Source: a virus
Lineage: Duplodnaviria; Caudoviricetes
Strand: one strand, 5' to 3'
Virus record (IMG/VR): IMGVR_UViG_3300020388_000010
DNA: 64,000 bases
The notes under the pieces were generated by a model that made no database searches, was not told the DNA's origin, and saw only the letters and a program-made list of their open reading frames with translations. Position numbers and translations under genes: made by a program. Below, in pieces: positions 1 to 5,488 of the stretch. Every line of letters begins with the position of its first letter. The first letter of the stretch is position 1.

Positions 1-2
1 CA

Positions 3-389
3 TTAAGTGAAGAACATTTACAAAATGCAAAAAAATTATTTGCAAATGTTGTACAACCAATAAGAGAAAAGTTTGGTATAACACTCATTACATCTGGGTA
101 TAGAAGTCCAGATTTAAATGCAAAGATAGGTGGTTCTTCTAAATCACAACATTGTAAAGGTCAGGCGGTTGACCTTGAGTGTTTAAAAGAAAGTAATGCA
201 GATGTGGCTATGTGGATAGAAAACAATTTAGATTTTGACCAGTTAATTTTAGAGTTCTATACACCAGGCGACCCTAGAAGTGGGTGGATTCATATATCTT
301 ATAATGAAGATGGAAAAAATAGAAAATCGGTATTGACAGCAAGTAAAATAAATGGTAAAGTAGTATACACAAAAGGATTAAATGTATAA
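3..389 (+). CDS. Peptidase M15 family endolysin-like protein (N-terminus lies before the window)
   Basis: Frame is open from position 3 and reads ITSGYRSPDLNAKIGGSSKSQHCKGQAVD...DFDQLILEF...GWIHISY, the M15 Zn-peptidase motifs. The track's 204 start is internal. Confidence 0.85.
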   Translation, partial: LSEEHLQNAKKLFANVVQPIREKFGITLITSGYRSPDLNAKIGGSSKSQHCKGQAVDLECLKESNADVAMWIENNLDFDQLILEFYTPGDPRSGWIHISYNEDGKNRKSVLTASKINGKVVYTKGLNV

Positions 390-398
390 TTACTTACA

Positions 399-938
399 AT
401 GCAAAATATATTTTCAACAGGCATAGAAACATTTAAATTAGAAGGTATAGATAATGAATCAATTATTAACTATTCAGAAAAAAATTCAATCAGAAATGGT
501 GTGAAAGAAAATAAAGATATACTTACTAATAATATATTTACAGAATTAAATAATGTTGTAAAAATAAAAATGAATGAGTATTATAGTAAAATATATAATG
601 ACAAATATAATATGGTAGTATCGCAAGCTTGGTCAAATGTTAATAATGATGATTTAATAACAGAACCACATAATCACAGAGAATCTTTTATATCTGCTGT
701 ATATTATCCTTTGGCAACAGACGGTCACATTTCATTTTTAAATCCTATGCAATCATTAATATCTCATCAATCTAATGATATGATAGACGAGTTTAATGAA
801 TATAATAGTGATTATTATAAATTTAATGCTAGAACTGGACATCTAATAGTTTTTAATTCTATGTTACAACATTACATAGGTGACACTAAAGAAAAAAGAA
901 TATCAATAGCTTACAATGGAATTAATAGAAAATGCTAG
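399..938 (+). CDS. 2OG-Fe(II) oxygenase-like protein (TIGR02466-type)
   Basis: W-S-N, HNH..ISAVYY, LIVFNSMLQH, KRISIAYN motifs. Confidence 0.8.
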   Translation: MQNIFSTGIETFKLEGIDNESIINYSEKNSIRNGVKENKDILTNNIFTELNNVVKIKMNEYYSKIYNDKYNMVVSQAWSNVNNDDLITEPHNHRESFISAVYYPLATDGHISFLNPMQSLISHQSNDMIDEFNEYNSDYYKFNARTGHLIVFNSMLQHYIGDTKEKRISIAYNGINRKC

Positions 939-1036
939 ATAAAAAAGGTTATACTCAAAGAGAATGGGATAGAGTTGTAGGTTATGGGAAAGTACCAGAT
1001 GAATATAAGAAAAAGAATGTTCCAACACAAAAATAA
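932..1036 (+). CDS. Small hypothetical protein MLDKKGYTQREWDRVVGYGKVPDEYKKKNVPTQK (not in track)
   Basis: Manual translation; overlaps the flanking genes in the way tightly packed phage genes do. Confidence 0.5.
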   Translation: MLDKKGYTQREWDRVVGYGKVPDEYKKKNVPTQK

Positions 1037-1703
1037 TTTAGATATACCAGACATAAGTGCTAAGACTTCTGATGGCATAAGGTTATACGAAACACCAGAG
1101 GGTAAGTTTTATCCATCTATCACTACTGTTTTAAAAAACAGAGGTAAAGAAGGTTTATTTGAGTGGAGAAAAAGAGTTGGTGAAGATGTTGCAACTTATG
1201 TTTCAAGAAAATCTGCAACAAGAGGAACTCAAGTACATCATTATTGTGAAAAGTATTTAGACAATGGTTATGAGAACAAAGATTGGAATGAATATAAAAA
1301 AGGTAGATTTCTATCTTATTGTTTGTTCTCACAACTAAAACCATATTTAGATAAAAGAATTGGATTGATACATTGTCAAGAAAGAGCATTATGGCACGAC
1401 TTTTATAAGATTGCTGGTAGGGTTGATTGTATTGCAGAGTGGAACGGAGAGTTGTCTGTAATTGATTTCAAAACAAGTACCAAAGAACGAGAAGATAATT
1501 GGAATGAGAACTATTATATACAAGCCTCTGCATATGCAGAGATGTATCAAGAAAGAACATCACAAGAGATAAACCAGATAGTTATATTAGTGGTTACAGA
1601 AGACGGTACAGTTCAAGAGTTTGTAAAAGATAAACATAAATATTTGCATCTACTTGACAAAGAGTTAAATCTATATTATAATACTGTAGAGACTGGTAAA
1701 TGA
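1017..1703 (+). CDS. PD-(D/E)xK exonuclease of T4-like marine phages
   Basis: YPSITTVL, RGTQVH, AGRVDCIAE, IDFKTS, YYIQASAYA. Start probably ATG 1017 (track gives 984). Confidence 0.85.
   Translation: MFQHKNNLDIPDISAKTSDGIRLYETPEGKFYPSITTVLKNRGKEGLFEWRKRVGEDVATYVSRKSATRGTQVHHYCEKYLDNGYENKDWNEYKKGRFLSYCLFSQLKPYLDKRIGLIHCQERALWHDFYKIAGRVDCIAEWNGELSVIDFKTSTKEREDNWNENYYIQASAYAEMYQERTSQEINQIVILVVTEDGTVQEFVKDKHKYLHLLDKELNLYYNTVETGK
1655..1683 (+). promoter_or_regulatory. sigma70-type promoter probably driving tmRNA-pqqA
   Basis: TTGACA-N17-TATAAT perfect consensus. Confidence 0.7.
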
Positions 1704-1757
1704 CAAATAACAGTTTGTTCATATAACTTACAGAAATGTAATTTATAGATATAAAGG

Positions 1758-2003
1758 ATACTTGACGAAGATGACTTTGAGATAGACTGGACGAGGGGGC
1801 AGTACCCTCCACCTCCACCAAAAAGCCTCTAATGAGGGGGTGAAATAGGGTAGACAGATGTTAAAGGGTTATTGGAGAGTATGGGTTGACTTCCTTATAG
1901 GTCAAACACTATAAACGCAAACGATAACTTTGCATCTCAAGATTTTGCACTAGCTGCTTAATCTGATAGGGTTCGGTGAGTTCCTAGTAACAGAATACTC
2001 ACC
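1758..2003 (+). ncRNA. ssrA: Circularly permuted two-piece tmRNA (alphaproteobacterial type)
   Basis: Acceptor piece ends GAGGG-GGCAGTA-CCCTC-CACCTCC-ACCA at 1820. After a 15-nt spacer the coding piece starts GGGGGTGAAATAGG at 1836, giving a 7-bp acceptor stem with G3:U. Tag frame 1917-1961 = ANDNFASQDFALAA*. Terminal GGTGAG..CTAGTAACAGAA..CTCACC hairpin. Confidence 0.95.
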
Positions 2004-2068
2004 ATTTAATAATGAGTGGTCTGCGGCCCAAGGCAACCAGCACTCCAATACTAGTTAGGAGAATAACT

Positions 2069-2146
2069 ATGGCTTGGTCAAAACCAACTATTACTGAAAT
2101 TTCAGTAGGTCTTGAAATTAATTCATACGCTTGCGCTGAGAAGTAA
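2069..2146 (+). CDS. pqqA: PQQ precursor peptide PqqA, MAWSKPTITEISVGLEINSYACAEK (not in track)
   Basis: 25 aa with a W-x-KP leader and the G-x-E-I-N-S-Y core (ExxxY), strong AGGAGA RBS upstream, terminator downstream. Confidence 0.9.
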   Translation: MAWSKPTITEISVGLEINSYACAEK

Positions 2147-2158
2147 TTTCATTAAATT

Positions 2159-2202
2159 GGGTGGGGTATAATACCCTTGAGGTTTGAACCCACCCTCTTT
2201 TT
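2159..2202 (+). terminator. Intrinsic terminator after pqqA
   Basis: GGGTGGG...CCCACCC stem followed by TCTTTTT. Confidence 0.65.
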
Positions 2203-2231
2203 ATTAATTTTTATTAGATTGTGAATACATT

Positions 2232-2441
2232 ATGACACCAAAAACATTTTCAATATACATAGAATCTCAAGTCAGAGAGAAAAACATATCACATATGGAT
2301 GCAATATTAGAATATTGTACCAAGAACGAAGTAGAACCAGATAGTATAACTGGTCTAATCCAAAAACCACTTAAAGATAAAATAGAAGCAAACGCAAGAG
2401 ATTTAAACTTTTTACCTAAAATGGGTAAACTACCAGTATGA
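2232..2441 (+). CDS. gp33: gp33 late promoter transcription co-activator
   Basis: SHMDAILEYC..NEVEPDS..LI.KPLKDKIEANARDLNFLPK; upstream of gp59. Confidence 0.9.
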   Translation: MTPKTFSIYIESQVREKNISHMDAILEYCTKNEVEPDSITGLIQKPLKDKIEANARDLNFLPKMGKLPV

Positions 2442-3031
2442 TTCATATTATGGACGCCTTTAATGCATTTAAAATTTATATGGGTCTGAAAGCACACTTC
2501 AACTCAGACTATGACTTTACAAAGTATGGTGGTAAAACCAGAGCTAGTAAATCAAGTTATTTAAAAAGAAAAGACAAACATTTTTTTGGTAAAGTTGCAA
2601 GAAAATATGGTGATGAAACTCAAGACTTTTTTGTTTCTAATTTTTTAAGAAATGAAAAAGGATACATTGGAGAGTTTAATGATAGGAACTTTACAGATTG
2701 GAAAAAAAGACATCAATCATTAAGATATATGTTTGAACAAGATATGAACTTGTTGTTAAATCAAGTTACAAATTTTAATAAATTATTTACTGTTGAAAAC
2801 GGACAACACCCAATATTGTTTAGAAATTATTTATCACAAAGAATCAATATAGAAACAATGATTATATTAAACAAGTTAGTAAACTATCAAAAGGATTGGG
2901 ATAAACAAATAAGTGAAAACATCATCTGGCCTAATCATAGAAACAAATTAAATAATTACAATTCACTATTGACAATTAACGAAACAGAGTATAAAATGAA
3001 ACTCATTAACTTAACAAAAAGTAAAAAGTAA
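2438..3031 (+). CDS. gp59: gp59 helicase loader
   Basis: AFKIYMGLKAHF..YDFTKYGGK, KRKDKHFF, GQHPILF, INIETMIIL. Confidence 0.9.
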   Translation: MIHIMDAFNAFKIYMGLKAHFNSDYDFTKYGGKTRASKSSYLKRKDKHFFGKVARKYGDETQDFFVSNFLRNEKGYIGEFNDRNFTDWKKRHQSLRYMFEQDMNLLLNQVTNFNKLFTVENGQHPILFRNYLSQRINIETMIILNKLVNYQKDWDKQISENIIWPNHRNKLNNYNSLLTINETEYKMKLINLTKSKK

Positions 3032-3978
3032 TGCATATAATACCAATATACGATAAACAAGGTACAGAAGTAAACAGATTAGAAATAAACGATGATTTAA
3101 ATCATTGTGGTGGAAGGGTCTGGAAAGGTAAAGAACACTATTACAAAGGTTTAGGTATTCCTTACTCTCATCATCAATTACTAGAAAAAGATATTACAGA
3201 TGATTCTGAATTTGATATGATACAGAATACAAATATATTTTATCTAGGGTATCTTGTGTGTAGAAAAAATTGGAAGAATAAAGTAGGAATATTCCAAGAG
3301 AGATATCAACCATTTTTTCCAGATTTTATTGGTGCTTGTAGTGTTAAAGAAAAAACAATTACTGGTAACTCAAGAGGTTTTAAAAAGTCATCAGTTGATG
3401 TGATAGAAGTTATTAATTATGATGCAGTAAACAAACAGTATTATTTTAAAATGGATTATAAGTGTAAAAGAAAAAGTTATATTAAAGATGATGGTAAACC
3501 ACAAAAATTACAAGATTTATTAGAATATATGTTAGAAAGTGATTGGAACTTTCTGTGGGATAAAGGTGCAATCAATGATATAACACCAGAGGGTCTGGTG
3601 TCAGATGTAGCTGACCTATTTGAGTCAGATGAATTGCACCATCAATTAGGAACTGTATATTCAGTTTTATACAGTTTACACAATGTTAATGTACAAAAAT
3701 ATTTTGAGTTTCTTAAACATATGAAATTAGAACATAAGAATCAATCTTCTTTTATTACTAATTCCATATTGATTTTAGAGAATAATGGTATTGATACTTT
3801 ACCATTAAAACCTTTTAATGAAAATATGAAAAACTTTAAACATACAGTTTTGAATTTCTTATTACAAGGTAAAAATTGTGCATATTGTTCTTGTGATATG
3901 TTTATACACGAGGGTGATTTGGTCAGAGATGATTATGTACGAAAAGTATCAAAACAACTACAACACATACAATATTAA
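3031..3978 (+). CDS. Hypothetical protein with C-terminal CxxCxC
   Basis: 315-aa ORF with no recognised family. Confidence 0.7.
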   Translation: MHIIPIYDKQGTEVNRLEINDDLNHCGGRVWKGKEHYYKGLGIPYSHHQLLEKDITDDSEFDMIQNTNIFYLGYLVCRKNWKNKVGIFQERYQPFFPDFIGACSVKEKTITGNSRGFKKSSVDVIEVINYDAVNKQYYFKMDYKCKRKSYIKDDGKPQKLQDLLEYMLESDWNFLWDKGAINDITPEGLVSDVADLFESDELHHQLGTVYSVLYSLHNVNVQKYFEFLKHMKLEHKNQSSFITNSILILENNGIDTLPLKPFNENMKNFKHTVLNFLLQGKNCAYCSCDMFIHEGDLVRDDYVRKVSKQLQHIQY

Positions 3979-3995
3979 TTTAACTTGGAGTAAAT

Positions 3996-4196
3996 ATGGA
4001 ACAAAAACAATCTAACGAATCTTTAGTAAGAGAAAGAGATTTTTATCGTTCTAAATTTGAAGGTATGGAAGATAAAATAAAACTTCTATCATCTGATTGT
4101 GCATATCTTAAAAAAGATAATGACAGTTTAAGAGATAGATTAAAAGAAGTAAACAAACAAGCTTTTATTAAAAATAAAAGAAATTTTAGGAGATAG
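3996..4196 (+). CDS. Hypothetical coiled-coil protein
   Basis: GGAG RBS, heptad pattern. Confidence 0.7.
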   Translation: MEQKQSNESLVRERDFYRSKFEGMEDKIKLLSSDCAYLKKDNDSLRDRLKEVNKQAFIKNKRNFRR

Positions 4197-4198
4197 AT

Positions 4199-4507
4199 GT
4201 GGAACAAAGATTTACATTTATAAAAACAAATGAAATAAAAGATGATTTTGATTCTGAGGAGAGAGTAGAAGTTGAAGTTGTTATGGAAGAAAATGATTTA
4301 GGACAACTAGAAGAAAAGTTTAATAACTTTCTAAAAGGTTGTGGTTATGAAGATATTACAGTATCAATATCAGAACCTAGAATAGAACAAGATGGTGATG
4401 TTCTTGGTGACTTAGATGATGAACTAGAAGATGTTGACGAAGTGGACAATATTCACGCTTTCAAAAAAACTAGTGATTATAATGATAAACCATCTGATAC
4501 AGAGTAA
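4199..4507 (+). CDS. Hypothetical acidic protein
   Basis: AGGA RBS, FNNFLKGCGY segment, in operon. Confidence 0.65.
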   Translation: MEQRFTFIKTNEIKDDFDSEERVEVEVVMEENDLGQLEEKFNNFLKGCGYEDITVSISEPRIEQDGDVLGDLDDELEDVDEVDNIHAFKKTSDYNDKPSDTE

Positions 4508-5418
4508 TGCAACAACTATCTTTATTGGATATTATAGTGAATAATAGTAAACTTAAAAATGTATTTGTACTTGGTAATGGTGAGTCCAGAGATGGATATG
4601 ACCTAAAACAATTTAGACAATGGGGAAAGATATATGGGTGCAATGCACTTTATAGGGATTTTCAACCAGACGGATTGATATCAACAGATTGGGCTATGAT
4701 GCACGAGATATATTCATCTGGTTATTGTTCTAATAACAAATGTTATTTTAGACAATGGAAACTGTTACCAGAACAATTCTTTGAGATGTTACAATATACT
4801 GGATTAGAACAATCAAGTATGGAACAACTGAATGAACAACTCAAGAGTTTAGATTTAGATACAGTAGATAAATTTTTACATCAAAATGAAAAAGGTTCTA
4901 GAACACAATTAGTTTGTCACGGAATAGACCCAGAGAGATTTAAAGATGCGATATTAGAAATATTATCAAAGTTTAAAGGATTACCGAAAGGTGATGTAAG
5001 ACAAAAACTAGGTAATGCTGGTTTATGGATTACTTGGGTAGATGATAATGATATGGCTGAAGATTTAGATACTTTCTTTGATGGTGAATTTATGGGTTGG
5101 AGTTCTGGCCCTACTGCTGTTAGAGTTGCAATAGAAGAAAATAAAGATATAGATAGCGTCTATATGTTAGGATTTGATATGCCAAGAGATGGTAAAGTAA
5201 ATAATGTGTATAAAGACACAGATTGTTACATTACTTCTGATTGTAAATATGTAAGTCCTATGAACTGGATAGAACAACACGAAAATAATTTTAAGAAATA
5301 TCCAGACAAAAAGTTTTACAGAGTTATAGATGATGGTTCTGAAATACCAGAATGGTCAGACTATAACAATGTGAAAACAATCACCTACGGAAATATGTGG
5401 GGTAGAGTGGTTGTATAA
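4507..5418 (+). CDS. Conserved phage protein with a Rossmann-like (MptE/GT29-like) signature
   Basis: VFVLGNGESR, IYGCNALYRDF.PD, WSSGPTA, VYMLGFD, NNVYKDT. Confidence 0.6.
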   Translation: MQQLSLLDIIVNNSKLKNVFVLGNGESRDGYDLKQFRQWGKIYGCNALYRDFQPDGLISTDWAMMHEIYSSGYCSNNKCYFRQWKLLPEQFFEMLQYTGLEQSSMEQLNEQLKSLDLDTVDKFLHQNEKGSRTQLVCHGIDPERFKDAILEILSKFKGLPKGDVRQKLGNAGLWITWVDDNDMAEDLDTFFDGEFMGWSSGPTAVRVAIEENKDIDSVYMLGFDMPRDGKVNNVYKDTDCYITSDCKYVSPMNWIEQHENNFKKYPDKKFYRVIDDGSEIPEWSDYNNVKTITYGNMWGRVVV

Positions 5419-5421
5419 ATA
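5414..5421 (+). promoter_or_regulatory. T4-type late promoter upstream of gp32
   Basis: TATAAATA. Confidence 0.65.
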
Positions 5422-5488
5422 ACATTATATTATGATTAAGTGAAATAAAATAACATATAAAACATATAATAACATACGGAGATATAAT

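Follow-up and report, generated by a model that had tools for sequence, protein, structure and literature searches.

In the surface ocean, alcohol dehydrogenases that depend on PQQ and use lanthanides rank among the carbon-oxidation enzymes with the highest expression. The top xoxF5 transcripts of the ocean have been traced to a poorly known, streamlined clade of alphaproteobacteria (PMC11996626). Supply of the PQQ precursor by a phage is already a published idea: stand-alone PqqA was described in the methylotroph phages of Lake Baikal (Coutinho et al. 2020, Microbiome 8:163, PMC7678222), where the lone gene, present without pqqB-E as in the phage described here, was read as an auxiliary gene boosting PQQ for methanol dehydrogenase. 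An earlier note on the DNA analysed here had suspected that annotations of phage pqqA might exist, and the Baikal study confirms it.

The genomic setting also has described counterparts. The OM43 phage Melnitz and the Pelagibacter phage Mosig carry a two-piece tmRNA (ssrA) locus (Buchholz et al. 2022, PMC9004378) that has, in the same order as the locus studied here, a nuclease gene, a permuted alpha-type tmRNA, gp33 and gp59. In the literature we found no description of pqqA in marine T4-like phages, beside a tmRNA, or with a leader RNA.

Here, we report the analysis of a 64,000-nt stretch of viral DNA from IMG/VR (record IMGVR_UViG_3300020388_000010, hereafter the window), all features of which are described on the + strand. 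What is new in it is a marine alphaproteobacterial form of the gene, its conserved placement in a tmRNA unit, a SoxYZ-like companion, and an uncatalogued leader RNA. Taken together, the data make it probable that leader, ribosome-binding site, pqqA and terminator constitute an AMG cassette lodged between the two-piece tmRNA and gp33, which is expressed via the tmRNA promoter and supplies PQQ precursor.

Results

A stand-alone pqqA gene in a T4-like phage

The gene runs from the ATG at position 2069 (not 2070) to the TAA ending at 2146, and its 25 codons translate to MAWSKPTITEISVGLEINSYACAEK. The earlier note had proposed that this peptide is PqqA, the PQQ precursor, and profile searches support the identification, with 39.4 bits against TIGR02107 (E 3.8e-10, cut-off 20) and 32 bits against PF08042 (cut-off 21.1). 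Since both scores lie above their cut-offs and the PqqA model gave no match in any of 14 control genomes, the reading frame is a genuine PqqA rather than a chance ORF. Its core places Glu16 and Tyr20 within E-I-N-S-Y, and in PqqA the Glu and Tyr of the Glu-X3-Tyr motif are the residues that are cross-linked. A Shine-Dalgarno sequence, AGGAG, can be read at 2057-2061, 7 nt 5' of the ATG, and its GGAG is kept in every aligned pqqA leader. The start codon lies 65 nt 3' of the tmRNA end, with a terminator beyond the gene; every element that had been named from the letters alone (a 25-residue ORF with a ribosome-binding site and ExxxY core between tmRNA and terminator) could be located.

There is no adjoining pqqBCDE, and the reported absence of pqqB-E is borne out by tblastn with host proteins, which detected no homologue of PqqB, PqqC, PqqD, PqqE or XoxF in the 64-kb window. 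Candidate-host proteins likewise found neither pqqB-E nor xoxF in 233 related viral loci (~2 Mb, tblastn). Such non-adjacency is not disqualifying, because candidate host genomes hold orphan pqqA copies too.

Gene content assigns the window to a marine myophage of the T4-like kind, with relatives among the myophages of SAR11 and OM43. The gp32 of the window shares 62-65% identity with the proteins of Methylophilales phage Melnitz and of the Pelagibacter phages Mosig and HTVC008M, and the neighbours of the locus are an exonuclease, gp33 and gp59. The PD-(D/E)XK-type exonuclease gene (984-1703; phrog_298 exonuclease, 230.5 bits) takes the position of the nuclease gene 5' of the tmRNA in Melnitz and Mosig. 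An endolysin/peptidase-like fragment (3-389) and a 2OG-Fe(II) oxygenase gene (399-938), both ordinary for this phage group, lie 5' of it. The tmRNA itself (1717-2004) is of the permuted, two-piece alphaproteobacterial type (RF01849 alpha_tmRNA, 107.8 bits; RF04321 tmRNA_permuted, 113.2 bits), with the acceptor piece, ending in CCACCA at about 1817-1822, preceding the coding piece; the tag frame at 1917-1961 reads ANDNFASQDFALAA and ends in LAA. ARAGORN reported no tmRNA in the window, while the Rfam models did detect one. On the far side of pqqA follows a gp33-like late-transcription coactivator (2232-2441; phrog_254, 68.3 bits), which in the annotation of phage Mosig is the gene immediately 3' of the tmRNA.

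The tmRNA-gp33 interval as a cargo slot

The content of the interval between tmRNA and gp33 differs among the three phages. In Mosig, unlike the window, the tmRNA abuts gp33 with nothing between them and no terminator, whereas Melnitz carries a glutamine riboswitch and a 32-aa ORF where the window has its leader-pqqA-terminator cassette. The Melnitz elements span L001:4646-4815, with RF01739 at 52.8 bits followed by the unannotated 32-codon ORF MTLYQQWCYLKAQKEYRRRQKILMYFRIRLKG. These contents mark the tmRNA-gp33 space as a cargo slot, the cargo of the window being pqqA. From the Mosig arrangement, moreover, downstream read-through looks ancestral in the phage group, and the coding piece of the tmRNA would in any case appear to be excised from a longer RNA.

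Searches by blastn and tblastn yielded no relatives of the locus or the peptide among 50,697 deposited phage genomes, and the nearest virus record compared (G001) does not extend over this part of the window. In IMG/VR, a degenerate pattern (W-x-K-P...G-x-E-[VI]-[TN]-x-Y) gave at least 120 matches; all those listed were intact short PqqA-like ORFs, and among the 120 listed, 103 were of a betaproteobacterial type (class-a, MWTKPxATEMRFGFEVTMYVMNK) and 17 of the alphaproteobacterial type of the window (class-b). Their neighbours include genes for RegA, clamp-loader subunits, portal, major head, holin, endolysin, Sak and exonuclease, hallmark genes by which these contigs can be assigned to phages of several lineages. 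One 13.8-kb, 36% GC contig with the leader and pqqA, labelled as a Maricaulis sp. MAG (L125, NZMJ01000006.1), seems to be of phage origin and to have been binned with a bacterium, its flanking ORFs apparently resembling those of non-T4 phage contigs.

The synteny of ssrA and pqqA, which the earlier note had proposed to check, recurs among class-b viral contigs. When loci were scanned for the combination of T-arm, CCA end and matching acceptor strand, the CCA end of a permuted tmRNA was found 239-254 nt before pqqA in at least 48 of the 129 class-b viral loci listed; these tmRNA-linked loci include at least five leader subtypes, with tmRNA identity down to about 75%. The linkage is rare for class-a genes (1 of 103 listed loci in the scan, 1 of 20 with Rfam models).

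Layout of the transcription unit

A consensus sigma70-type (early) promoter, TTGACA-17-TATAAT, with 12 of 12 matching positions, is located at 1654-1682, inside the 3' end of the exonuclease gene and 5' of the tmRNA. No other strong sigma70 match occurs nearby on the + strand, and this promoter is kept in a related contig (L104). Beyond pqqA, an intrinsic terminator (GGGUGGG...CCCACCC plus a U-run; 2159-2202, fold -16.5 kcal/mol) consists of a 7-bp GC stem (2159-2165/2189-2195) followed by UCUUUUUAUU. A simple scan missed this terminator because its loop is long, and in L117 a different hairpin with a U-run stands at the same place. Compared by eye, terminator and tmRNA tail show no resemblance. 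An exact TATAAT occurs within the terminator loop (2167-2172), 60 nt before the gp33 start, with no matching -35 found.

No terminator-like site was detected between tmRNA and pqqA, and the region between 1700 and 2232 contains neither a sigma70 hexamer pair at the scan threshold nor a T4-type late-promoter box (TATAAATA), in a layout defined by consensus scans for sigma70-type and T4-type late promoters and for terminators. The earlier note had seen no separate promoter for pqqA and had described the gene as apparently co-transcribed with the tmRNA; the first point is matched by the scan, and the second holds as a likely reading. The sole consensus promoter precedes the tmRNA, neither a promoter nor a terminator match separates the two genes, and a terminator follows pqqA; these consensus scans outline a single unit, and co-transcription is the simplest and likely interpretation of the sequence.

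A conserved leader RNA precedes phage pqqA

Between the tmRNA and the Shine-Dalgarno sequence, conservation is far higher at bases 2013-2046 than on either side. These bases form a 34-nt structured leader RNA, an irregular 12-bp hairpin with invariant bulges, which is present as a single copy in the window (covariance model R1, 48.8 bits) and follows the motif GUGG-N-CUGCG-(variable hairpin)-AACCAGCACU. A 44-aa reading frame from an ATG at 2012 was considered for the same bases; indels of 1 nt and 4 nt in L104 and L117 break the frame while the nucleotides are conserved, which rules out a coding role for 2013-2046.

Several lines of evidence support the predicted structure. Across the alignment, 93.9% of the cells of the 12-pair hairpin are paired, compared with 19-56% when partners are slid, and none of 500 shuffles reached the observed score. 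Six of the 12 pairs change on both sides in a compensatory manner (for example U:A to C:G in L100 and L010, and GU/AC to AA/UU in L010), and RNAalifold recovers the same outer stem. Folds of single sequences show no greater stability than shuffled ones, as is usually the case for small RNA elements. Hairpins containing the Shine-Dalgarno sequence occur 3' of the leader in several subtypes, again with no more stability than shuffled sequence.

An exact-pattern scan of IMG/VR gave, with the window copy, at least 121 instances of the leader, a set of limited diversity since most members were retrieved by exact match, the independent variants being L010 and L100, which were found via pqqA. Among these instances, 113 of those listed are followed by PqqA as defined by the first regular expression and seven by a Val-variant PqqA; the last one leaves its contig after MWSK, so that all 121 listed stand in front of pqqA. 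A second lineage of phages, non-T4 in type, likewise has the element ahead of pqqA; there, the cassette comes after a holin-like gene and is equipped with a -10-like box of its own.

The leader has no Rfam match. The glutamine riboswitch, RF01739, was sought as a candidate in window 1650-2300 at E values up to 10 and did not match, while the Melnitz copy was recovered by the same model. The covariance model found no leader in class-a viral loci, Melnitz, Mosig, host pqqA loci or 27 pqqA-bearing genomes. In bacterial genomes the exact motif was encountered only in the apparently mis-binned phage contig and once in candidate host genome G005, where motif, next hairpin and ribosome-binding region (L369:2944-2981, - strand) make up the 5' UTR of the chromosomal rpoH. 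The RpoH there scores 343 bits with TIGR02392, and its gene is flanked by purA and rluD. A general host rpoH leader was rejected as an identity for the element, the motif being absent from four related rpoH leaders; 101 genomes searched as G005 relatives returned only G005 itself and one weak 24-bit match.

Our best guess is that the leader is a 5' element controlling how stable the cassette mRNA is or how well it is translated. We propose more tentatively, and with well under even confidence, that it represents a cis-regulatory RNA of a new class, either a small riboswitch or a translational operator bound by protein, that has moved with pqqA as a cassette and couples PqqA to a cellular signal such as a metabolite of the PQQ pathway or a stress state. 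A ligand-sensing role is possible.

The leader also bears on how pqqA is transcribed. Conceivably, the gene is transcribed independently from a start where the leader hairpin begins, the position behind the tmRNA being simply a permissive insertion slot. In the non-T4 lineage, either TTGCCA-16-TAAAAT or, at a distance of a few nucleotides, a TATAAT stands ahead of the leader, and the rpoH leader of G005 has a TATAAT five nucleotides upstream; from this placement directly behind a -10-like box in another phage lineage and one host genome, it follows that the cassette can have its own start site. The interval between tmRNA and gp33, empty in Mosig and differently filled in Melnitz, does behave as a cargo site, and a putative weak promoter, TTCCTA-18-TTTAAT, can be read inside the tmRNA tail of the window. 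Against an independent start stand the scans of the T4-like locus itself: the lack of a hexamer pair at threshold between 1700 and 2232 extends from the window to its T4-like relatives, there is no late-promoter box in that interval, and nothing resembling a terminator separates tmRNA from pqqA. We consider independent transcription unlikely for this phage, and expression from the tmRNA promoter remains the preferred reading.

Candidate hosts are streamlined marine alphaproteobacteria

Across 185,579 species genomes, the core pattern of the window type is alphaproteobacterial. The closest bacterial peptides, MAWTKP[TM]ISEISVGLEINSYACAEK, share 20-21 of 23 core residues with the window PqqA, and the phage ORF is identical to the chromosomal copies of candidate hosts at 68-71 of 78 nt. 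The loci concerned have 27-36% GC and belong to genomes of ~1.3 Mb and 27-33% GC, represented by marine alphaproteobacterial single cells and metagenome bins that their submitters labelled as Pelagibacteraceae, Rickettsiales, Rhodospirillaceae, or plain Alphaproteobacteria.

Four of the five candidate host genomes searched contain pqqC and pqqE above cut-off and, a few kb from pqqE, a dehydrogenase of the methanol/ethanol (XoxF-type) family (TIGR03075, 666-674 bits); in the fifth, matches are truncated. These bacteria bear out the expectation in the earlier note of a PQQ-producing host, as they combine near-identical PqqA with pqqC, pqqE and a dehydrogenase of XoxF type. Possibly they are the streamlined xoxF5 clade described previously (PMC11996626). 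All five genomes (G002-G006) have two to four copies of pqqA, some of them far from the operon, an unusual redundancy for small genomes which suggests that precursor supply matters. In G003, for instance, copies are found at C1:2015-2077, C1:7245-7307, C1:62107-62169 and C5:55038-55100. The operon of one candidate host spans L404:3410-6522.

The tmRNA tags of the candidate hosts are ANDNEMVLAA-like and differ from that of the phage. This mismatch implies that the phage did not recently acquire its tmRNA from these bacteria and gives no host link, so the assignment rests mainly on pqqA similarity.

A SoxYZ-like companion gene

The tblastn searches with PqqB-E, XoxF and neighbouring proteins were empty with one exception. 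Contig L334, which is 99.2% identical to window positions 1-5444 and hence derives from the same phage population, encodes at 4127-4852 a SoxYZ-like fused carrier that scores 138.7 bits against TIGR04557 (cut-off 140) and is 33-37% identical to the product of a gene beside xoxF in candidate host G005. TIGR04557 describes the quinoprotein dehydrogenase-associated SoxYZ-like carrier. The identity of the two contigs places this gene, in the same population, ~2.3 kb before window base 1. It is found in more than 20 related T4-like contigs and may, alongside pqqA, be another auxiliary gene serving the PQQ dehydrogenase system; two quinoprotein-linked genes in one phage would argue for support of the host pathway, not sabotage.

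Phage pqqA appears to be maintained by selection as a substrate

Comparison of 53 distinct class-b phage alleles gave pS 0.69, pN 0.096 and pN/pS 0.14, with synonymous differences near saturation and amino-acid change low, a pattern indicating that phage pqqA is under purifying selection. W, P, G-L-E-I-N and Y-A-C-A are invariant in these alleles; the conservation of ExxxY, by which the earlier note had proposed to judge the idea, is complete. Among ~240 phage copies listed, none is frameshifted or truncated. Seven leader-linked genes (L242, L253, L261, L269, L270, L273, L298) carry Val-Val in place of the N-terminal acidic residue (KPSITVV, TPKITVV) and retain the E-I-N-S-Y core, from which it appears that the N-terminal Glu is dispensable and the cross-link Glu is not.

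This regime of selection, with Glu and Tyr invariant, favours, on allele comparison, the supply of a substrate over a decoy. As a decoy, which the earlier note had raised as its alternative, the peptide would tie up PqqD/PqqE or another radical-SAM peptide system and stop or redirect host PQQ synthesis. The sole points in its favour are the lack of any phage-encoded modifying enzyme and the binding of PqqD to the leader region of PqqA. A mere binder would not need the Glu, the Tyr and the entire C-terminal core to be held invariant under strong purifying selection; the phage peptide is near-identical to the substrate of the host, hosts themselves retain additional pqqA copies, and the presence of a second quinoprotein-system gene in the same phage suggests support of the pathway. 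We regard the decoy as highly improbable. That pqqA is recently captured host DNA without function for the phage, as the 68-71 nucleotides shared with host copies might suggest, is hardly credible given its presence in at least 129 class-b and at least 103 class-a viral contigs on several unrelated phage backbones, saturated synonymous sites alongside little amino-acid change, and a conserved leader of its own that is not found at host pqqA genes.

Discussion

The arrangement of the locus is consistent with the following course of events. Early in infection, the sigma70 promoter at 1654-1682 would drive a single precursor RNA from which the pieces of the tmRNA would be excised; the 3' remainder, extending from the leader hairpin, or near it, to the terminator, would serve as pqqA mRNA. 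The peptide would be passed to PqqD, PqqE, PqqB and PqqC, none of them phage-encoded, of the host, and one PqqA would be consumed for each PQQ made. In this way, PQQ supply to the periplasmic XoxF-type alcohol dehydrogenase of the host could persist after host transcription fails. We infer that transcription continues beyond the tmRNA, that the RNA is processed, that the peptide is used as a substrate, and that the benefit is energetic, in the form of electron input to respiration; PQQ is a stable cofactor, and demand for fresh PQQ during one infection is assumed.

From an ecological standpoint, the existence of a common phage gene for the one consumable step in PQQ synthesis suggests that the pathway is limited by the supply of its precursor. 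Phage pqqA would at the same time offer a sequence handle linking uncultured T4-like phages to candidate hosts. The locus further suggests that stable-RNA operons can act as landing pads for small metabolic cargo, and the leader, should it prove regulatory, would add an abundant new member, represented by over 120 natural variants, to the RNA elements that phages carry.

Compared with the bacterial PqqA family (TIGR02107/PF08042), the window peptide has the same length, W-x-K-P leader and E-x-x-x-Y core. Bacterial genes, however, are found in pqqABCDE operons and as orphan copies, whereas that of the window is virus-encoded with no biosynthetic partner in cis, and its 5' leader is unrelated to those of host pqqA genes. 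The Baikal phages differ from the window phage, which is marine, in coming from freshwater, in having Methylophilaceae hosts and, in one case, in carrying a methanol dehydrogenase gene; the alphaproteobacterial type (G-L-E-I-N-S-Y-A-C-A), the tmRNA linkage and the leader RNA are not described in that paper (PMC7678222).

A further comparison, by analogy and not homology, can be made with psbA (D1) of cyanophages, a gene of another pathway encoding another protein. Its expression and benefit have been shown experimentally, whereas pqqA is known here from sequence alone. The logic that the two would share is that the phage supplies the used-up part of a host energy system and the host provides the rest.
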